The position numbers were made by a program, and so were the translations under genes. DNA of 20,000 nt from Piedraia hortae CBS 480.64. Lineage: Eukaryota. Shown here piece after piece: positions 3,226 through 20,000 of the stretch. The stretch's first letter is position 1; every line of letters starts with the position of its first letter. The notes under the pieces were generated by a model that was not told the origin of the DNA, ran no database searches, and saw only the letters and a program-made list of their open reading frames with translations. The stretch is taken from positions 301,502 through 321,501 of the forward strand of contig MU005969.1 of the NCBI GenBank assembly GCA_010093745.1. The letters run 5' to 3'.

Positions 3226-4833
3226 TCAACCCAACTTCCTTTTTTTATTCTTAACCCCCTCATCCTCATTCCACGCCTTTGTAAAAACTTTCTCCTTGCC
3301 CTCAAATTTGAGTAGCGCCTCCCTTGGATCCTCATCCCTCAGTCCTGCAAGTGGGACATTCTTCCTCACATAGTCCTCATCGGGATTGAATCTTCCGAAC
3401 GGCGTTTGGACCGGAATGTCGGGCCTCCTGGGATCTTTGACACTCATCCTTTTCTTCTTGGGCGCCTCAACCTCGTCGCCCTGCGCGGCAGCCGTCAGAT
3501 CTAGGTTGACCGTATCGAGGGATTCGTCGACATGGACCTTTTTCGGAGCACGTGAGAGGACACCTAGGGCGCCATTTGAAGAAAGCTTGGGATCAAAGAG
3601 GACGGAAATTCTGCCATCCCCGCCGCCAACAAGAATCTGGTTCGTTTTCCCGTCCCATAGCACGGACGTCATGGCTGAGTCGTACACTTTGGTGCGCAAC
3701 TCCTCGGTCAAGGTGGCGGATTGAAGGATAACCAGTTCCCCCGTGGGAGACCCGTGCAGGAGATACATAGCATCGGGGGAAAATGAGAGGGCGGACGCTA
3801 CTCCGCCAGGGGAGGAGATTGTCTTGAGCGGCTGGGCCATTTGGCGTGTATCGAACAGCAGGATGCGCTCTGCAGATTGAGAGGCCAGGAGACGCGCATT
3901 GGCGCCGACACAAAGCGACATGCTCTTGCCTGATCCCTCGACCCAGTCCGGAGCAATTTTTGTCTTGGTCTGCGTTCGATTCGGGACGCGAATGTCCCAA
4001 TGTCCCAGTTCCCCATCGCGTGACAGCGCATATATGGCCGTCGCATCGCCCCAACCAACGGCTTCAAATGCAATGCGCCCTGGCCGTAGCATGATGGCGC
4101 TCTGCTTGCGCAGTGATGCCATTAGATCCCATACCCGCAACGTTCCATCTGTCCCCGCTGTGATGAATTCGGATGCCCTGCGCGCCGACCATGCTCCTCC
4201 GGTTATACCTGAGATGTGGCCCTTTGTGTTCCGCAGATCAGACAAATAGACGTCGCCCTTGACCGTTTCGGCCAGAGCGACACCGTCGCGTGAGAGAACT
4301 TTTGCGTTGGAAGTAGGTGTGATTACCAGTAGTTTCTGCGACGAGGAGTCGAATGAGGCGGACAGCACGGGCTGTAGCTCCACTCGCGCCGTCTCTGCCT
4401 CACGCGTAGCCACTTTGCTGCCTATGGCCCCGGGCTCAAGAATCGACGGCGTCACGCTTTTGAACGCCTTTAGCGTGCTTAAAGTCATGGATGAGAAGTC
4501 ATTGAACCCCAGCGTGCTATCCAACGATGCTGTTACGAGTCTGTTCCCTGAACCATCGACCGCAAGGCTTGTGATGCTCCGCGAGTGGCTGCTAGAGAGC
4601 GCCAGGCAGTGACTGGTCGGAAAAACCGGGTCCTGGTCTCCATCTTCTGAGGACTCATCTGACGAGTCTGCTGTCTTTCTCGTAATGTCCTTGCATTTCG
4701 CGGTCAGTGGTTGCCGTCTGGCGGATTCGATTTGCGCTCCAATATCAACGGCACAGTGGCGCGCACCGAAGCCTTTCGTGCCGAGAAACGACTGTAGCGC
4801 TTCTTCTTCTTCAATCTCGGGAGACGAGGACAT
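3226..4833 (-). CDS. WD40-repeat protein, WDR70/GAD-1 family
   Basis: Contains KGDVYLSDLRNTKGHISGIT and DEDPREALLKF, typical of WDR70, plus WD-type repeats (TAGTDGTLRVWD) and a basic C-terminus KNKKRKLG. The ORF-track start at 4905 is TTG; the likely ATG is 4833 (MSSSPEIEEE), alternatively 4845. Confidence 0.85.
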   Translation of the reverse strand: MSSSPEIEEEEALQSFLGTKGFGARHCAVDIGAQIESARRQPLTAKCKDITRKTADSSDESSEDGDQDPVFPTSHCLALSSSHSRSITSLAVDGSGNRLVTASLDSTLGFNDFSSMTLSTLKAFKSVTPSILEPGAIGSKVATREAETARVELQPVLSASFDSSSQKLLVITPTSNAKVLSRDGVALAETVKGDVYLSDLRNTKGHISGITGGAWSARRASEFITAGTDGTLRVWDLMASLRKQSAIMLRPGRIAFEAVGWGDATAIYALSRDGELGHWDIRVPNRTQTKTKIAPDWVEGSGKSMSLCVGANARLLASQSAERILLFDTRQMAQPLKTISSPGGVASALSFSPDAMYLLHGSPTGELVILQSATLTEELRTKVYDSAMTSVLWDGKTNQILVGGGDGRISVLFDPKLSSNGALGVLSRAPKKVHVDESLDTVNLDLTAAAQGDEVEAPKKKRMSVKDPRRPDIPVQTPFGRFNPDEDYVRKNVPLAGLRDEDPREALLKFEGKEKVFTKAWNEDEGVKNKKRKLG

Positions 4834-5396
4834 TAGAGTTAGCATCCATAGTCGTCCTGATGCTGCTATACAATAGGCGATGTTGGAAACGATTACGTAA
4901 TTCAATGCATGAAGGAGATTGGTCTAACCGTTTTTGGTCTTTACACAGAGAATGTGAACCTGGTCCACTGAACCACCAGTGCACCTCACTCACCCAGAAT
5001 AGCGGTGAAGAATATTGCTTTTCCGATAGTTGCTGGCTACTTATGCAAAAGAAATCGTCTTCAAGCATCGTCTCTGGTCTATGATGAGAATCACTGCAAC
5101 ACCCTGTATGCAGCCCGCAGAAAGTTGATCTCGCGATGCTCATGTTCGACTGCTTGCAGCGACCCATTCTCTGCACTACGGTTTCTCCTTCCCCCCAACC
5201 CACCCCGGAGCTATTCATCTAGAGACTCAGTGCCCATATACGAAGCTCAAAAAGATAAGTTTACCTTCACACGACACCTCATATCCTTCCATGAAATGAT
5301 CCCCATGTGTTGTGAGGCTGGCAAGATGTCTTGGAAACAGAGTCTACATAACACTGAAAGTTACGTAGGGCAGTTTTCTCTCCAAGTTGTATCTCG

Positions 5397-5942
5397 TCAC
5401 TCATTGGGATCTGATTTTATCCATCCTTGCGGTGTAGATATCTTCCAATCCCATGGATCCCCCACTTGATTTAGATACTTGCTCCATCGGTCGGCTGCTC
5501 CAAGTAACTCTGCCTTGGCCTCGGGACAATTTTCAAACTTCCTGCCTTTGTTCTTGCAAAGTTCTACCGCGTACTTTGCGTGTTTCAACCTTTGAATAAT
5601 GCCATCGTACGCCTGGGTCGCATTTGGTTCTCCGAAGTTGGCAAGCGGCTCATTGAACCATTTCCAATGGTGTCGCATCAAGCGTGCGTCGTCAAAACTT
5701 TTCGGATTCGGTGGCTCGCCGGCAGTGATTAAATGCGTGTATGACCTGCCCAAGTCCTCATCTGATGGCAAAGCATAAGTGGGGGATTTGAGAACCCTCT
5801 CTCTAGGCAAGGGATTTGCCCTGGGTAGAAAGCATATCGAGACTGTTTGCAAATGTTAAATTTACGCCAATAACAAGGCAAAGGGATGCATGCATAAGAG
5901 GAGAGTCACTAAAACGCTCTGGAGGACTGTGAATGGATTCAT
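5397..5942 (-). CDS. Small secreted protein, paralogue A (164 aa); exons 5942..5894 and 5842..5397
   Basis: ATG at 5942 in ACCAACATG context. Spliced N-terminus MNPFTVLQSVLVTLLLFSICFLPRA-NPLP looks like a signal peptide and joins the 5397-5852 ORF in frame. The C-terminal 62 aa align without gaps to the neighbouring gene. Requires a GC donor. Confidence 0.75.
5843..5893 (-). other. Putative GC-AG intron of paralogue A (51 nt, phase 1)
   Basis: Minus strand: GCATGC...TTTAAC...GCAAACAG. Same phase and position as the GTATGC intron of paralogue B. Unspliced read-through hits TAA. Confidence 0.65.
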
Positions 5943-6320
5943 GTTGGTGACGTATTTGGGCAAGGGGGCCAGCTCTTTCTCTTATCCACAGGCGTCATCT
6001 TACGTATGATACTCACAGTTCCTTGTTGCAAAACCTATGATATGACTGTACGCGCACGCTATTCCAGAATCTTCTACATAAGCGAATTCCTCTTTATAGC
6101 CAATTTTCAGTGCCCTTACTTTTGTCCCCAAGCACCCGTAGGTACCTGGACACAGCGGATTCCTGACATAGCGGACAGAAGTTTTCTGCTAGATCGATCC
6201 GCTACATCCAGGATCGACTGTAGATGATTCCATAACTAACCTGAATGGGCTGAACGTGCCCCTGATCGTATAATGGAAACTCACTGCTAGACAACCTCTC
6301 TATCGAACTCCCGAGGTTTT

Positions 6321-6801
6321 CTAGTGACTTTGAATATTTTCCAAAAACAAGCCCAGATACGGGTACGTGTATCGGTGGCCATCTTTGAACGTGATATCTT
6401 GTACCCACGGATTGCTGACAGCATTTGTGTAGTCTTTATACGCGTTGCTCACAACGTGCAGCAGGTGTCTTGCCTCCCAGCATTCTTCCAAGTTTTTCCC
6501 TTTCACTTTACAATTGTGTGCAGTCATCTTTGCTCGCATTAAGTACGCCATCGTGAGATTATAACTTTCCCTCGGAGGTCGATCATGTAGAGGGTTCAAA
6601 GTTGAGCCAGCAGTGGGAGGCTTGGTGGGAATGGGGCGGCGGAATGGACGCGGAGATCCTCCGTCCGAGATGGGAACAGCAATTGCTATCGGGACTAATT
6701 TCGAAGGTCAGAAGCTTTGGTTGCGATCCAGGAATGGAAATGAGAGGCTGCATACCTAGGAGGAACAACATGAGGCCTCGGAGGATGGCGAGCAAGTCCA
6801 T
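6321..6801 (-). CDS. Small secreted protein, paralogue B (139 aa); exons 6801..6756 and 6694..6321
   Basis: ATG at 6801 in CAAAAGATG context. Spliced product MDLLAILRGLMLFLLVPIAIA-VPISDGGSPRPFRRPIPTKPPTAGSTLNPLHDRPPRESYNL... has a signal-peptide-like N-terminus and joins ORF 6321-6599 in frame. Homologous to paralogue A. Confidence 0.85.
6695..6755 (-). other. Intron of paralogue B (61 nt, phase 1)
   Basis: Minus strand: GTATGC donor, TTCTGAC branch point, TAG acceptor; splicing creates an intact signal peptide and an open frame. Confidence 0.85.
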
Positions 6802-8324
6802 CTTTTGCTGATCGGGGCGTGAAAATTGTGTTGTGGTTTCGCACCACGAGTCAGGAAGTTGACTGCCAGAACCTCTGGCGGTATGAGGCGACAACCCTTC
6901 TGGGCCAGAGGGATTGAGTCAGACTCCTCGTTCATTCAGCAAACAAGAACAGAGCCCAGCACTTCGGATTGCGGAACATGAACTTACTCATCCGTGGTTC
7001 TGCTTCACCTTCTACACCCTCAGAGATGCCAGCTAATCAAGCCAATTAACTGTGAGTGCTCTCCAGTCTGTCTCAGTGGGGCTTGTCTCGTCACATTCCC
7101 GGACCAATATTCAAGGGCTTGGAACCCAAGGGCCTAGGTGTGTAACGATAGTGCCACCACTCTCCGGTTTGTTCGCTCAATTTAGACCACATTTCCTCGA
7201 TATAGCCCTTCCAGATACCATACGTCTTGCTCTGGCGAGTTCAAGTGGTATACGAGGCTAGAGAAATGAGCGCAAGCAACACGACGAGTTGTGAGTTCAA
7301 GATAGATTCGTTGAATTACTTGGATAATGATGTGATTCCATCTATTCTATTATGCTTTCAAGCAGATATCATATGCGCCGCATTTGGGTTAATAGCTGTC
7401 GCCGGGAGTGCAGTCCCATCGCCTCAATTTCTGCTTGGTCTCAGGTGGACGAACTTGCTTCGCGGATCCCTGCGATGACATCGATTTGATATACTCTTGA
7501 TACATAGAGGTCAAGGTCACGAAACTGGTCTGCAAGCATTTATGCATGGTTGGAACTGGTATCCTTTTTCGATTGACAAACTTGTCGTTGCCATGACTTT
7601 GGACGGAAAAATTACTAGTGGGCAACTAGTCTGTCTACTTGTCGAGTAGAATAATAGCCCAGCATGCTAACAGGCCCAGTTTTAGATATGTATCAGTCAC
7701 CTCCTTTTACCAGATTGTATCTTTTGCGTCTATGAGGCAACACACAAAACTGGGCTGATCAGATCACATTAGGCATTAATGTGTACACACGTCGGAGTTG
7801 CTTGCCTCCAAGAGCATGCAGCATCAAAAAATACTACTATGACCCTCAAAAGCTGGGGACCGAGTACTCCATGTGTGGTATTTGAGGTACGATTTCAATC
7901 AAGGCCGGGCGTTGGGATACTTTGGTATCTACACGACAATGTGGCAGTGTCGACTTTTACTCCGACTTACAGGTAAATTTATCGCCTAAATGGTTCGTCA
8001 AGCCACACGCAATAGACGCAAGCTGAAAAAGGGCACAGTAGGCACTAAGCCTTGCTCTCTGTACAAGAAGCTCAAAGGCTTACAGAAGGACAAGGCTGAA
8101 ACCGCCAATCCCAAAGATAGAACATAATCGATGGAAACAACTCCTTGTCAACCACAGCAAGTTTCGCAAAAAGGTACTTATCGCTTCCAACGGCATGAAT
8201 AATTCCTTCAAGTGTGGCAGTACAGCAAAATGAGCAGATCCGCCAACACCAGGATCCATTATCACCTCAGCCTCGGGCCCTGGGTATAAGTACGTGGTGA
8301 CGGCCTTCTCACCACACCCCCAAG

Positions 8325-9289
8325 ATGTATCCCAAATCACTTCTTCTAGCAGCCTGTACTTTTGCTCAGATATATGAGTGAGTTTCGTTCGCACCAAGGA
8401 CCATGCACTGCCAACTTACACAGCCAGTCCAATCCAGACATCATCAACCACAGATGCCAGCAGTTTATCCAGCGACGGCCCTTCTTCCCTCACATCTGCA
8501 CCGGTGTCGATCCCTACAGCTAGTCTTGTTCCCTCGTCAGTCCTCTCTGCAGACGCATCGTACTTTGAGACCTTTACTTCCAAGCCTCGTGTTCCTCAGC
8601 CAACCATGACGTTAGCCAACACCAGTACAGCAACGCCCTACCCCCCACCAAACACCACAGAGCCTCTCCCGACATCCGCGCTGCCGCACTTTGTCTCAAC
8701 CGTATTGGAGGCTGTATCGTCGGGAAAACATTTCTTGGGCAACCTTCCGAGTCCTTTACAGACGCAGCTCTCCAGCGCATGGGAGGCAGCCACGTCAGTC
8801 TACTCGAACCTCCCAACAGGTATCCGGAACGAGATGATCTCCGACCTGGCCGCCGCAACGTCATTCGTGCATGGCGCGTTGCCGTCTGAGATTAATCGCG
8901 AATTGGACAATGCGTGGAGCAAAGTCCTTAGCGATGCCAGCTCAGAGCTGGACACGGCGCATTCCTCGACAAGGACGGGCTTTCCGCCTTGGTTCACGGT
9001 GTTGCCCCCTGGTTTGAAGACGATTGTAATGGAACAGGTGATGGGAGAAGAGGGGCTCCAGCAATTGGCGACGGGTACGTCGAGAAGCGCCGCCTCGCAA
9101 AGCTCAACGCAGACGCAGAGTGATGTGGAAACGCCTACCACTACGGCTACTGTACTGGAGACTGCAGCAAATAACTTGACGAGCTTCTCGCTGGGTGTTT
9201 CTTCGGGGGCGAAGAGAGATCTGCATGCTGTTACGGTTGGGTCGGCGTTGCTTGCGGGGATAGTTTTGGGAGGCATGTTGATAGTCTGA
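8325..9289 (+). CDS. Ser/Thr-rich secreted, probably GPI-anchored cell-surface protein (304 aa); exons 8325..8377 and 8428..9289
   Basis: TATAAG at 8285; CCCAAGATG start. Exon 1 MYPKSLLLAACTFA-QIY is a short signal peptide; the GTGAGT..CAG intron joins it in frame to DPIQTSS. Two S/T-rich stretches; C-terminus SSGAKRDLHAVTVGSALLAGIVLGGMLIV fits a GPI signal (small residues, spacer, hydrophobic tail). Confidence 0.82.
8378..8427 (+). other. Intron of the GPI-type gene (50 nt, phase 2)
   Basis: GTGAGT donor (the ORF track's GTG 'start'). Of the two close acceptors, AG ending 8423 or 8427, only 8427 keeps the signal-peptide exon in frame. Branch point is weak (CTTAC). Confidence 0.7.
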
Positions 9290-10720
9290 AGGTTCCCGAC
9301 CAGACATGATTTGGTCGGACAAGTCAGAGAATAAAGGCAGAACGATTTCGTTATTGGGAGTCTACATTATTTTGTCTGGACCTGCAATGTCATGGAATTC
9401 TTGTACTGTAGATTCGACGGCATCTCAAAGCGAGCAGCCTGGTTTGCGTGGAAACCAGGCCATTCTGGGGTAAAGGAACCGTTGCGGGGTTCTCACTATT
9501 CAGCAGGTTGGAGCCCATCCTACTGGCCTGAACTATCAAGCCTTTTCTCGTCTACGAGCCTTCTTTTTGCCGTCAGGTAGCCGTTTGCGGCGTAATTTTG
9601 GCCCACCATCAACGACCGAGTTGTGGCAGATGACCCCAAACGTCCCAACGAATTAGAACGTTTCGTTAGGGGTTTCCCTTTTGCAGTAAACAGTAACGGA
9701 CTAGAGGCTGACCAATGAGGTGGCAAAATCATACACCAATCACGATGGACATATTTGAAAGCATTCTTCACTGTGATCCCACCAACCGGGCGCTCTCGAC
9801 GGCAGCTAGCGCTGTGGCACAAACGGATATGGATACCGAGCCGGTCGAATGCCTACATACGTATGTAAGTAATCAATCAATCATGCTCGACCGAAATAGA
9901 ACTCAAAAAGACGGCTGCAACCTGGCGCGTGAGTGACCTAGGCCTCACGCACATCCAGACACATATCCAAGAAGCACCTGGGAGGAAGTCGATGCGTTGG
10001 CTATTGTAATGACAGATATACAGGGTGGCTTAGGCGGTGTCCGCATACTGCTTGGTGGTACGCGCAAACATGTTGATGACCGCCATAACAAGGGGAGTGA
10101 TGAGTCAGTGGACCAAATTTCGGGTCGTACATGAAGCATGCAGGCGCAAGAGAACGAATTCGGGATGAGGCAATGTGTATATCGTGATACTATGTTTAGT
10201 CATGGTGGACCGCAGCCTCGTATCTACTAGTTGAAAAGTGGATGGCAGTCGCCAGTAGAAACGACGAGGACGGTCAATATGTTTATTCCAGCCACTGGCC
10301 CCGGAAACTCGAGGCCCCGCACCCCCACTTGCCGCCTCCGCATGTTCTCCGCTTCCCCGCACGTTATTGTTCCGCTAAAGTATGTGGCGGGAGCAGGGAT
10401 GTACCCCAGTCGCGTCACACCGTCTTTTGCCATGGCCGAAGCGATCTGGGGATTCTCGGTCGACGTGATGATCACCGTGGATCACGGTTGACATGATTGG
10501 CAGATTAGGATGTTGGACATGGCGAGCGTCTTAGACACCTTAGACTTCGTGGCCTACTAGACAAAATGTGGGCAGCTCCATCGGAGAGTCTTGCACGCCA
10601 CCCGCCACCGACTTCCTGCCGGATTCCCTACTGCCTGCAGCAGGGATCCTCGCCGTCCCGGTGATCCATTTGATTGACCACGTCGACTCTTTTTACCCAG
10701 ACCACATTTCTCTTCCCTCA

Positions 10721-11812
10721 ATGTCCCATCGTAAGCGTAACTCGCTATTTTCCAAGCCGCTGCGGTCGTCGCTGTTCCGCCGCGAGGACGTCGCCGCTGA
10801 AGTTGCCTCGATGCCGTCGTCGCCGTCGCCGTCGCCGTCGCTCAGCGTCGTGCGCAAAGACTCGATATCGCTGCCATTCAACTTTGAGCACATCTCGCAT
10901 ACGGAGCGCTTCAATCTACCGCTGCTGGGTTCCGTGCGTGGCCGAGTGCTGACTGAGGCCTTCTTCGCCGCATCGATGCGGCCGCGGCCGCGCAAGCCGC
11001 TGGCCGGCATGCGCGTTGACGACGTGCCCGAAAAGCTGTCGGCCATGGGTGTTGCAAGGGGCGCGTCCAGATCCCACCCCGAGTCAGCCGCTACCGCCAC
11101 ATATCCTCCTGTCTCACTGCCCGTATGGCTTGACTCGCGGTCCGACCTCCCGCTGCAGCCGCCGCCTAAGGCCGACAAAGACAAAAGCTGTAGCTCGTCG
11201 CTGCTCGCTTCAACCATAATATACACCAGCCCACTCAAATCTCCTGCCATGTCGGATAGCTGGCAATCTGACTGGCCTATTGATTGGGAGCACGACGTGG
11301 ACTACTGCTATGCCCAGGAGGCCGAGAGCACCTGCGACTTCGACTGGTCGCGGCCCGAAAAGCAGCCGTCACGGACACCTTCCGTCTCATCGCAGAACCA
11401 CGCACCCCTTGGCCACGCTGGTGTCCTCGCTACCAGAGGAGCGCCGGGCCCAACCCCCTACGATATTTCTTCAGCTTCGCTTTCCATTCCCGTCGCCTCT
11501 AAACCCGTTTTCACTCCGCCCAACTACGGTGCTACAAGTTTCGCGACGTCGGCTCAGCGAGAGATCGAAGCGCCAGCAGCAGCGGCGATAACAGCCACCG
11601 ACGGAGTCGACGCATCGCCGGAAACCAGCAGCTCGTCACGGCGTATTAGCAAGTCGTCACTGCGGAACATGCTGTCAAGATCGCCTGAGGCGTCACGCGA
11701 CAGTTATCAGGAGCGGCCCCGGAGGTCGTCGACGGCGGCACCGCGCTTTTTGCGGTCTAAACGGCGTCAGCAACAACAGCAACAAGCGCGAACGGAGCCG
11801 GCGTGGTTCTAA
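10721..11812 (+). CDS. CRIB/PBD-motif protein, low complexity (about 363 aa), candidate Cdc42/Rac-binding protein
   Basis: ISLPFNFEHISHT matches the CRIB consensus ISxPxxFxHxxH. Also has an acidic/aromatic block WEHDVDYCYAQEAESTCDFDW that I recall from uncharacterised Pezizomycotina CRIB proteins. First in-frame ATG is 10721; the track's 10568 start is GTG. Confidence 0.75.
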   Translation: MSHRKRNSLFSKPLRSSLFRREDVAAEVASMPSSPSPSPSLSVVRKDSISLPFNFEHISHTERFNLPLLGSVRGRVLTEAFFAASMRPRPRKPLAGMRVDDVPEKLSAMGVARGASRSHPESAATATYPPVSLPVWLDSRSDLPLQPPPKADKDKSCSSSLLASTIIYTSPLKSPAMSDSWQSDWPIDWEHDVDYCYAQEAESTCDFDWSRPEKQPSRTPSVSSQNHAPLGHAGVLATRGAPGPTPYDISSASLSIPVASKPVFTPPNYGATSFATSAQREIEAPAAAAITATDGVDASPETSSSSRRISKSSLRNMLSRSPEASRDSYQERPRRSSTAAPRFLRSKRRQQQQQQARTEPAWF

Positions 11813-12065: not shown

Positions 12066-14032
12066 ATGTCGCTGTTGGACCAGGGCTGGATCAAGGTGCA
12101 GGCCAAAACGTTTACGAAATGGTGAGTTGGCCCAGAAAGAGAGAAAGAGGCACAACCGATGCTGACGCCCATAGGCTCAACAACAAACTGGCCGCCCGCG
12201 ACCGCCAGATCAACGACATTGTCACCGACCTCTCCGACGGCGTCGAGCTGATACATCTGTTGGAGATTCTGTCACAGGAGTCTTTGGGTCGGTATGCGTC
12301 GCGGCCGAAGCTGCGGGTGCAGCGGTTCGAAAACGTCAACATTGCACTGGACTTTATAAAAAGCCGGCGCATTCAACTGACCAACATTGGCGCCGAGGAC
12401 ATTGTCGACGGTAACCGCAAAATCATCCTGGGCCTCGTTTGGACGCTCATTCTGCGCTTCACCATCAGCGACATCAACGACCAGGGGCTTAGTGCGCGTG
12501 AGGGTCTCCTTCTCTGGTGCCAGCGCAAGACGGCCTGCTACGATGACGTTGACGTGAGAGACTTTTCGGCCAGCTGGAACGATGGCCTCGCCTTTTGTGC
12601 CCTGCTGGACATCCACCGGCCGGATCTCATAGACTTTGACGAGCTGGACAAGTCGGACCACCGCGGCAACATGCGCCGCGCCTTTGATATTGCTTCGCGC
12701 GAAATTGGCATCCCCGACCTGCTAGATGTCGAGGATGTCTGCGACGTGGCCAAGCCGGATGAGAGGTCACTCATGACGTACATTGCCTACTGGTTCCACG
12801 CCTTCTCGCAAATGGAGCGCGTGGAGAACGCGGGTAGACGGGTCGAGAAGTTTGTGTGCACCATGCAGGGCGCGTGGGACATGCAGAACGACTACGAGCG
12901 GCGCATGCGGGCGCTGCTGGCCAAGGTCGATGCCCAACGCAAGGCGTGGGAGGCTGCCACCTTTGACGGCACCTATGCTGATGCAAAGGAACAGGCCCGT
13001 GCCCTGACGGCCTACAAACAAGGCGAAAAGCGGAGCTGGGTGGGTGAGAAGAGCGAACTGGCCAGTTTACTGGGCAATATCAAAACGAAGCTGAACACGT
13101 ACCGTCTACGACCCTACGAGCCACCAGATGAGCTCCGTCCCGAGGCGTTGGATGCCGCCTGGAACGGGCTCATGTCTTCTGAACGCGACCGGAGTCAGCA
13201 GATCAATACGCAGATGCGGGAGATCAAGCAGGCTCTCCAACGCGGCTTCGCAGACAAGGCCAACGACTGCGCTCTGGCATTGAAAACCATTGGGCTCAGC
13301 ATCTCCGGGCTGGAAGGCGACGTTGAAGACCAGCTCGACCACACAAATCGCATCGCGCGCAGTGTGCCGCCAGTGGAAAAGTACCTGGAGCTTCTCCAAG
13401 ACCTGGACACTCGGTGTCGCGAAGCCAACATTGAAGAAAACGACTTCACCACTTACACTTACGACGAGCTGGTCTACGAGCTCTCGTTGGTCAAAACGTC
13501 TGTGCAAAAGAAGCTTGCCTTTCTAGAAAACCAGATCGTTGCCCGGAACATGACGAACCTGACGCCGGTACAGCTGGAAGAATTTGAAAGCGTCTTTCGC
13601 CACTTCGACCGCGACGGTTCCAATTCGCTGCAGGAGCTCGAATTTTCCGCTGCCGTGGCCAGTCTAGGGCTTGTCTACGACGAAGAGGAGATGCATTCGA
13701 CCTTCATGGCCGTCGCGGGGGCGGGGACAACATCCGCCACCTCTTCATCACCACCGAGCGTGACGTTTGAACAGTTTATCCATTTCATGGTCGGTGTTAC
13801 GGCCGACCAGCACACGGCCGAGCAGGTCTTCGAGTCCTTCCGAGAAGTAGCTGATGGAAAGCCATATGTTACGGAGCTGGACCTCACGCACTCGCTCATT
13901 CCGGAGGACGTGGTCAAGATGCTCGTTGAGAGCATGCCAAAGCACGAGGGTCCCGTTCAGGTCAAAGATGACAGAGAACTGGACAAGTTTGACTATAGCA
14001 GGTTCATGCAGGGTTTCATGCAAAACACGTGA
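12066..14032 (+). CDS. ain1: Alpha-actinin (fungal Ain1-like; two CH domains, short spectrin rod, EF-hands), 637 aa; exons 12066..12121 and 12175..14032
   Basis: Spliced N-terminus MSLLDQGWIKVQAKTFTKWLNNKL (actinin KTFTKW signature). Also NIGAEDIVDGNRKIILGLVWTLILRF, LLLWCQRKT, KPDERSLMTYIAYWFHAF, EF loop DRDGSNSLQELE and C-terminal FDYSRF. Confidence 0.96.
12122..12174 (+). other. Intron of alpha-actinin (53 nt, phase 2)
   Basis: GTGAGT donor, GCTGAC branch at 12161-12166, TAG acceptor; splits the Trp codon of KTFTKW. Confidence 0.95.
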
Positions 14033-15143
14033 TGCTATATCACTGCCTCTGACTGCAAGGACTGGCTTTTTCTTGTTTCTTTTTCCTTTTCCTTTTTTTG
14101 TTTCTTCAGTTGCGTTGAGCGTGGGTATGAAACGATAACATTCTAGACAACAGTGGGATGAACCGGACTGGAACTGGAAAGGATGGGATAGACTTGTACG
14201 TTGCTTTTAATTTAGTCATTAATCCATTTCTTCATCAGCTGCCGTTATGCATTTGGAGCGGCGATTGTGGAAAGACAGCCACGCTGTGCTCAGGTGGGAA
14301 GTCCTAAAATGTGTGCAGATCGATACCTATGCCGAGTCGAACAAGAATGTCATGACAGTACTGTCATCATGAGGTTAAACGACATAGGCATATCATACAA
14401 CACCTATGTCTTTTAGCCTTCTACAAGTCTAGCCTCGGCCTAATCAACACTTTTCATTGGGGTGAGCAACTCGCTCATCTCAGCTTTGATTTCTTTCCCG
14501 CGCTTCCTGGGAGGATCCATCGTGGCAGACTGTTGGCTGGCCGACTGTTGTATGATATTTGGAATTGTTTTCGGTAAAGGTATTGCTTGTATATAAACTT
14601 TGCTGTTCATCAGAAGTTAAATAATGACTTCGACCCACTCTCGGTATGAAAACTACTTTCCACTTACGATTTTGCATCAGTATCCCATCATTCGTCACGG
14701 CGTCCTTCACTTGCTCTTTGCGTGACTTTGGCATGGTTCCTTTGACACCGTTCCGCAATAAATGTTACCTCGCTACACATCTGAGTAATCTGATGCGTGA
14801 CTTTCGCGTTGACAGATGCTTGATTGATAGCTAGGCATGTGAAACACAGGGGGAGGAGGGGGGGGGGCCGCTATCTTGGTCTCATGTTGCAATGTAGGCG
14901 TGAGCATTGATTTGTATCCGCCAAGAATTGCTCGTTATGCTTTCACTGTCACTCCATCCTTCCAGTCTACGGACCGTGACGCTCCAAGGTGACTATATCG
15001 AAATGACGTACTGTACCCCCACATCCAGTTAAATAGTCCCTTTCACCGTCTTCCCCGACAACAACTCGCCAGCAGCCTTCCCCCACGACATCGGTTTCAT
15101 GCACATCATCGTAGCGTCCAACCACAATTCTCAGCAAGGTGCT

Positions 15144-19224: not shown

Positions 19225-19725
19225 TTTGCTGGGATGGTAGAGGTGAGGTTGGTTGGGCAGGCAATTTACGCTTGTGGCCCGGCCCGGTCCGTTTCCACAG
19301 CTGTGGGTCTACTTGTCGGGATATGGTTGGTAGTAGCTAAGACTTGATATGATACCAAATGAGAGTATTGAGACTAACTTCTTGTCAAATCTGGGACCAG
19401 CACGTGTTTTATGGCATGACGCAGGGAAGGGTAAGTGAATGATCTGTGGAAGCATCCCCCCCCCATTACTCTAACTTTGGGCAGTCCCTCTACATATCAA
19501 AGAGTGGGTCTGCCCGGCAAACACGCAGACAAAGGGCCTAGCCAAACACCACAAAAAACGCTGCCGAAAATCACTTCTGAGGTGTTTGTCCGCGATATCT
19601 CCACAGGCCATCAAATGCCTTCGTGATGTTGCCCAAGTGATCCCCATCAAAGGTTTGGCAACGGACCATATACTGAAGAAATGAATGATACGTCGTCAGA
19701 ATGATTTCTTAAGGTTTGAAACTAT

Positions 19726-20000
19726 TCAGTCTTCAATTTGAGCATTTCCTTGATTCAGGACCCACCTCGTGTTAGGTTTCGCGCATATCTGTGACAGTTT
19801 CGATCCGCCAACAACTTCATGCGAATGATACAGCCGCGGTTCAAGCAAGTTTTCTCGAAATGTCTCTGTCCTGTTGAATGCTCTTAACAAAGACTGATGT
19901 AAGCCATCTACACCACTCGCTGCTGACTCGCAGAAACCTACTATTATAATTGTGAGCAGATGTGTACCTGCATACAAATCTCTACGGAAAACTAGTTGAC
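19726..20000 (-). CDS. Possible exon of an unrecognised gene running in from beyond the window edge
   Basis: Minus strand has GCTCAC followed by ATAG (branch/acceptor-like, ending 19941), then an open frame xGFCESAASGVDGLHQSLLRAFNRTETF... to TGA at 19726. No recognisable homology. Confidence 0.25.
   Translation of the reverse strand, partial: QLVFRRDLYAGTHLLTIIIVGFCESAASGVDGLHQSLLRAFNRTETFRENLLEPRLYHSHEVVGGSKLSQICAKPNTRWVLNQGNAQIED

Follow-up and report, generated by a model that had tools for sequence, protein, structure and literature searches.

A transcribed pair of tandem paralogues in Piedraia hortae belongs to an apparently species-restricted family of predicted secreted two-helix proteins

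Gene Structure and Transcripts

The window, a 20,000-nt stretch of contig MU005969.1 from Piedraia hortae CBS 480.64, carries two adjacent small genes on its minus strand, here called A and B. Gene A starts with an ATG at 5942, and its first exon (5894..5942; 16 codons plus one base) encodes most of a hydrophobic signal-like segment. A 51-nt phase-1 intron with GC-AG ends (5843..5893) and a branch-like TTAAC 17 nt from its 3′ end leads to the second exon (5397..5842, including the stop codon), which encodes the end of the signal, a linker of ~69 aa, and a conserved domain (5424..5609). This domain runs from Tyr95, contains Cys112 and Cys122, and is predicted to form an antiparallel two-helix hairpin. 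Gene B starts with an ATG at 6801; its first exon (6756..6801; 15 codons plus one base) encodes a signal-like segment and is followed by a 61-nt GT-AG intron, also in phase 1 (6695..6755), with CTGAC 17 nt from its 3′ end. The second exon with the stop codon (6321..6694) encodes the end of the signal, a Pro-rich linker of ~34 aa, and the putative hairpin domain (6378..6563, from Tyr60, with Cys77 and Cys87). Both introns had been placed at the same position by an earlier sequence-only reading of this DNA; their phase is indeed identical, while their positions are equivalent rather than identical (16 versus 15 codons plus one base).

Transcript evidence comes from the contigs of one run (X1) of one study, the sole run that the search matched, and demonstrates presence rather than level. 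Six splice joints, five GT-AG and one GC-AG, fall within 4400-8899, so X1 represents spliced RNA; two of them are exactly the introns of A (joint 5842/5894) and B (joint 6694/6756). The joints bear out both spliced models of the sequence-only reading (164 aa for A, 139 aa for B), which had left the GC donor of A unstated; a 45-nt GT-AG alternative for the intron of A, possible on paper, is not seen among the X1 joints. A further joint, whose short side spans only 29 letters, defines a 61-nt minus-strand intron upstream of the B start codon (6927..6987), whose donor is a perfect GTAAGT but whose acceptor, GAG, is unusual. This intron probably sits in the 5′ UTR of gene B; once it is removed, an upstream ORF of three codons remains, with its start at 6991.

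The minus-strand spacer between the stop codon of B and the ATG of A (5943..6320, 378 nt) is covered without a gap by RNA, since a single 1,813-nt X1 contig spans 5002-6926 and holds both genes in spliced form. Such an arrangement of adjacent, same-strand genes would suit an obligate pair, in which A and B associate as a four-helix heterodimer in the manner of tandem ESAT-6/CFP-10-type genes or build the fibrils of the nodule cement. However, X1 contigs routinely merge neighbouring transcripts (another measures 8,854 nt and the longest record 19,839 nt) and gene A has a TATAAA of its own at 6098-6093, 156 nt upstream, so the 1,813-nt contig does not establish a shared transcript. The upstream regions of the two genes share two 8-mers, one containing a reversed CCAAT, at −163 and −136 for A and at −246 and −215 for B; order is kept and spacing is similar, and about two such matches are expected by chance.

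Homology, Selection, and Annotation Status

The conserved domains of A (5609-5424) and B (6563-6378) align without gaps, with 20 of 62 residues identical. Recomputation reproduced exactly the translations, coordinates, and identities previously given for this alignment, and the consensus derived from it corresponds to the invariant columns. Smith-Waterman comparison of the second-exon products gave a score of 89, a value reached by none of 5000 shuffles (mean 28.4, sd 4.8, maximum 59). Among the 11,026 pairs formed by the 149 stop-to-stop ORFs of at least 60 aa in the window, the A/B pair ranks first, with the runner-up at 64. Nucleotide identity at codon positions 1, 2, and 3 amounts to 34, 34, and 16 of 62 (Fisher p=1.8e-4), and with pS at 0.76 and pN at 0.49, synonymous sites and third codon positions are saturated. 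The codon-position pattern together with this saturation indicates an old duplication kept under protein-level constraint, as the sequence-only reading had proposed. A and B are thus intact, spliced, transcribed paralogues that arose from an old tandem duplication in P. hortae. That the pair could instead be a chance alignment or dead, decaying copies might be suspected from the weak GC donor of A and from the absence of B from the annotation. Against this reading stand the shuffle tests, the codon-position pattern, the intact frames, the splice joints seen in RNA for each gene, and a third member independent of the pair (below). For genes and transcripts these findings refute it, and we regard it as hardly credible.

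A protein search with A returned one match among 12 candidates, the hypothetical protein K470DRAFT_27147 (KAF2861990.1) of P. hortae CBS 480.64, which is identical letter for letter to the GC-AG spliced model (164 aa). Gene A is therefore already annotated. Neither of two profile searches that included B (one of 108 and two of 405 candidates returned) recovered its protein, nor did an HMM search over 1.84 billion representatives of any length. In a control of seven look-ups with guessed starts, exact-sequence matches on this 321,501-nt contig were obtained for three of five neighbouring genes. The proteome is thus represented in the collection, and gene B is probably an unannotated spliced gene of 139 aa. 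The description of the pair as hidden consequently holds for B, which is absent from the collections, but not for A. According to the available text of PMC5677156, fungi do have GC-AG introns, which certain gene finders overlook; the annotation here caught the GC-AG gene and missed the GT-AG one.

A Third Member and the Reach of the Family

A family HMM search, which the sequence-only reading had suggested, yielded a third member, K470DRAFT_295555 (KAF2859539.1, 143 aa, E 3e-7), encoded on another P. hortae contig of 172,704 nt. It scores 151 against B and 111 against A (none of 3000 shuffles reaching either value), so B is closer to this unlinked relative than to its neighbour. B and KAF2859539.1 are also alike over their first 36 residues, comprising the signal and the segment that follows (score 67, 0 of 3000 shuffles). 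After the conserved P-W, KAF2859539.1 has a different C-terminal tail, with a 14-residue insertion in the alignment. Its neighbourhood may hold more unannotated copies. The only other HMM match fell in a repeat of a protein of 1,182 aa that carries a type IX secretion tail, and it was dropped as a chance hit.

Relatives outside P. hortae were found neither in protein collections, Pfam, NCBIfam, PDB sequences, and the ESM Atlas nor in viral, prokaryote, or metagenome contigs, the most sensitive of these searches having been run with a two-member profile; comparison by fold likewise gave no convincing relative among the matches listed. Pfam returned no family at E≤1 for the second-exon products of A and B, full-length A, or the third member; with the domain only, the best result was DUF7183 (E 0.099, 13.2 bits against a cut-off of 27), obtained for one of the three members. 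Earlier failure to recognize the family thus agrees with the lack of a significant profile or family match in these searches. The three neighbouring housekeeping genes found in the control are themselves singletons at 90% identity, which indicates that close relatives of P. hortae are unsampled in the collection. Judged by titles and the starts of abstracts, the literature on the P. hortae genome and secreted proteins contains no paper on the family; "K470DRAFT" is absent from the papers among the matches listed, although A and the third member may appear in the secretome tables of PMC7082219. On these searches, the family, with three members found in no other organism, appears to be lineage-restricted. 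We hold the genes and the family as described to be close to certain.

Secretion, Domain Architecture, and Predicted Fold

N-terminal hydropathy over 11 residues peaks at 2.9 in A and 3.05 in B versus 0.25-1.98 in five neighbouring genes, and no hydrophobic 19-mer occurs further along the chain. Cleavage-like sites and hydropathy support a putative signal in all three members, in keeping with the signal peptides proposed by the sequence-only reading. Each protein is predicted to comprise a cleavable signal peptide, a variable linker, and a hairpin domain of ~55 aa. The linker had been called Pro-rich throughout, a description that suits B (26% Pro) but neither A (13%) nor the third member (8%). 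Likewise, the supposedly shared N-x-T sequon dissolves on alignment: Asn90 of A lies five residues before the first conserved Tyr, Asn61 of B lies one residue after it, and KAF2859539.1 is without a sequon.

Two AlphaFold2 domain models agree on helices at residues 4-27 and 36-55/56 (mean pLDDT 76 and 79), with the first Cys ending helix 1 and the second beginning helix 2, so that the cysteines lie at the turn, as had been surmised; the model for A adds a low-confidence β-hairpin tail. The domain is thereby predicted to fold as an antiparallel two-helix coiled-coil hairpin. Columns that are hydrophobic in all three members show heptad spacing, and their 3.5-residue periodicity was reached by 307 (helix 1) and 2 (helix 2) of 20,000 column shuffles, whereas the invariant columns in helix 2 are not periodic (10,684 of 20,000). 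Pairwise identity amounts to 27/39 at core positions and 13/81 elsewhere, in a register chosen after the alignment had been viewed and with a conservation pattern drawn from three sequences. From the models, the conserved residues are predicted to fall into three groups: those of the hydrophobic core, those at the turn (C, G, E-x-C-x-E), and those of an aromatic cap over the open end (Y, Y-x-N-x-V, P-W). Overall, we consider secretion and the two-helix fold highly probable. The domains carry a net charge of +3, +3, and +4 (pI 9.0-9.3 in all three members), and the mature A protein as a whole is nearly neutral (net +1). Each protein has one C-x9-C among its two to three cysteines, and dibasic sites number zero in A, one in B, and one in the third member.

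Comparison with Known Systems

Two familiar classes of secreted fungal proteins can be set aside on composition. Hydrophobins have an eight-cysteine pattern, which the two to three cysteines per protein exclude. Kex2-processed repeat proteins contain repeated units parted by dibasic sites; the dibasic counts given above and the lack of any tandem repeat in A and B exclude such a precursor.

WXG100/ESAT-6-CFP-10 pairs are tandem genes for diverged secreted helical hairpins with a central W-x-G motif. The present genes resemble them in being tandem and in encoding diverged, putatively secreted helical hairpins, and the predicted hairpin in both domains favours the obligate pairing raised above. 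They differ in being fungal and in their predicted signal-peptide route. A W-x-G motif is found in none of full-length A, the B second-exon product, and the third member, and no WXG100 profile matched. The positions hydrophobic in all three members are the core heptad positions only, which fits a self-contained hairpin, and the greater similarity of B to the unlinked third member than to A also counts against a dedicated partnership, which we consider quite unlikely.

Dld1 (PIIN_05872, PDB 5LOS) of Serendipita indica, from the DELD family, is likewise a small secreted fungal protein and is said to be an antiparallel two-helix coiled coil; DELD proteins reportedly end in a C-terminal DELD motif. 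The family here lacks that motif and has a cysteine pair, and 5LOS is absent among the fold matches listed for the domain models. The His (2.4-4.9%) and Ala (6.3-7.9%) contents of the family also contrast with Dld1, which is His/Ala-rich by the title of its paper. By the features compared, the family belongs neither to the DELD proteins nor to WXG100.

A further possibility is that the family descends, with heavy divergence, from a helical protein of wide distribution, for example one of the twin-CX9C/CHCH mitochondrial proteins, and acquired a signal peptide on the way; rapid evolution and thin sampling would then explain why it looks like an orphan. In twin CX9C/CHCH proteins each motif lies along one helix and disulfides connect the helices, whereas the lone C-x9-C here spans the turn. 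The resemblance consists of a two-helix hairpin and the C-x9-C spacing (PMC7909247, available text). Among PDB sequences, the three-member profile matched best to an NDUA8 protein of the CX9C type from a ciliate, and the C-x9-C falls in register in this alignment. This match is non-significant (E 0.22), NDUA8 is unlisted with the domain-only profile, and no Pfam CHCH-type family matched. According to the same source, the known proteins have two motifs (four cysteines) rather than one and enter the intermembrane space by import, compared with the signal-like N-terminus here (PMC7909247). In the present family the cysteines flank the turn. Twin-CX9C membership was set aside on the single motif in each of the three proteins. 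That even the housekeeping neighbours are singletons at 90% identity lends the broader idea of a diverged offshoot some backing, but it strikes us as very improbable. Foldseek placed QCR6 hinge proteins among the weak matches listed (E at least 2.8).

The closest parallel is with the orphan candidate effectors of Pezizomycotina as defined in the available text of PMC10462633, with which the family shares a signal-like N-terminus, the lack of a Pfam domain, a conserved core, and a variable surface, as well as its occurrence as a small paralogue set in one species. The definition asks for a mature size of <300 aa, and the three proteins measure 164, 139, and 143 aa before signal removal (PMC10462633). 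On disorder (<50%), A is perhaps borderline because the linker takes up ~69 of its ~139 mature residues. The family fits this working definition of an orphan candidate effector; that paper describes 62 structural families (PMC10462633). Unlike the orphan candidate effectors of plant pathogens, it belongs to a hair coloniser. In the portions available, PMC10462633 reports 4,987 orphan candidate effectors in 20 genomes, 34.5% of the modelled ones being singletons at its stricter cut-off, PMC7082219 gives ~1,950 species-unique gene clusters for an average Dothideomycete genome, and PMC12018790 names MAX, ToxA, LARS, KP4, KP6, RALPH, and FOLD as solved fungal effector folds. Species-restricted small secreted families are, on these partial accounts, common in fungal genomes (PMC7082219, PMC10462633). 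The family is a new species-restricted one of ordinary kind, and because orphan small secreted families are so common in fungi, it holds little surprise unless a function is shown.

Putative Function

The sequence-only reading put forward a C-x9-C disulfide and three candidate roles (effector, antimicrobial, or host-surface protein), all of which stay at the level of proposals. In the mechanism we favour, the two cysteines would pair as a disulfide within the ER, pinning the turn and stabilizing a small extracellular protein. This protein would act as a non-enzymatic rigid scaffold, whose variable, mildly basic outer surface may bind anionic partners outside the cell, most plausibly the surface of the hair or, on the fungus itself, the melanised wall or the fibrillar matrix; each paralogue would have binding partners of its own. 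Conservation is read as serving the fold rather than an active site because there is no catalytic-looking cluster beyond two turn glutamates and one asparagine. Binding to wall, matrix, or hair is ranked first because P. hortae has hair nodules and a microfibrillar matrix and because hair and melanised walls are anionic. We put the probability of a secreted hairpin that binds such anionic surfaces at roughly 0.35. Several points weigh against it: the basic charge is modest, with mature A as a whole only at net +1; the proteins are without the repeats, high cysteine content, and GPI-type tail typical of matrix and adhesion proteins; the invariant columns of helix 2 lack periodicity; and the conservation pattern draws on three sequences and the transcript evidence on contigs of one run. 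The nodules on hair are described as hard (PMC7082219), and the hyphae as embedded in a microfibrillar extracellular matrix whose composition is not established in the available text of PMC11551259.

The same basic charge of the domains (+3 to +4), the amphipathic character of helix 2 (moment 0.36-0.55), and a paralogue set with a variable surface could alternatively belong to an antimicrobial or competition protein, a secreted basic hairpin that binds competing microbes on scalp and hair and damages their membranes or walls. However, the hydrophobic stripe is a narrow heptad core buried within the modelled hairpin, charge density is low (3-4 per 53 residues), and no known antimicrobial family was matched in sequence or profile searches. 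Although many fungal secreted proteins across diverse folds are predicted to be antimicrobial (PMC13525658, available text), we regard this role as rather unlikely for the present family.

Small size, a stable scaffold, and a variable surface would also be expected of a developmental or signalling ligand (for hyphal adhesion, or stroma or ascus formation) that binds a receptor of the fungus, perhaps once a short pro-peptide has been cut off. A short post-signal segment that ends in a dibasic FRR is indeed common to B and the third member. Yet A has no dibasic site, that of B is followed by proline, which blocks Kex2 cleavage, and a receptor-like gene was not found beside the A/B pair; a ligand therefore ranks among the readings we think unlikely.

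The wall-, matrix-, or hair-binding interpretation has a more specific and far more speculative form, in which the family is a species-specific structural or adhesive part of the "cement" in black piedra. Its basic hairpins, stapled by disulfides and perhaps paired as an A:B heterodimer made from a read-through transcript, would bind hair keratin or assemble into the microfibrils around the hyphae. We give this version only a slender chance. If true, it would supply a first named protein of the nodule matrix, and fungal adhesins that bind keratin would gain a new class. The proteins of this family are cheap candidates for what hardens and glues black-piedra nodules. Apart from function, one probably unannotated spliced gene (B) is gained and three hypothetical genes are tied into a defined family. 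P. hortae has the smallest Dothideomycete genome of its study, with 16.95 Mb and 7,572 genes (PMC7082219, available portion), and the retention of three selected copies in so reduced a genome suggests a useful extracellular role.

Genomic Neighbourhood

The genes flanking the pair are of housekeeping type: one flank has genes for PEX3, a WD40 protein, and a sugar transporter, and the other, at a greater distance, has α-actinin, Bmt2, ATG101, and a ThiF-family gene. A plus-strand gene (8325-9289), oriented head to head with B, encodes a 304-aa Ser/Thr-rich protein with a hydrophobic C-terminal tail; its short first exon encodes a signal-like start, and its intron (8378-8427) is an RNA joint. 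It has no Pfam match above cut-off and, by these features, looks like a GPI-anchored wall protein. Upstream of it, two RNA-supported GT-AG introns on the plus strand (7629-7679 and 7993-8038) yield no ATG-started ORF of >70 aa in any splice combination, and they would belong either to a long 5′ UTR or to a non-coding transcript. A 422-codon Ser/Pro-rich ORF on the plus strand (10544-11812), also without a Pfam match above cut-off, contains a short stretch that we take to resemble a CRIB motif. Three stretches of 0.7-1.2 kb each, at 9300-10540, 14030-15140, and 19310-20000, are without a convincing long ORF and could hide further small spliced genes like B.
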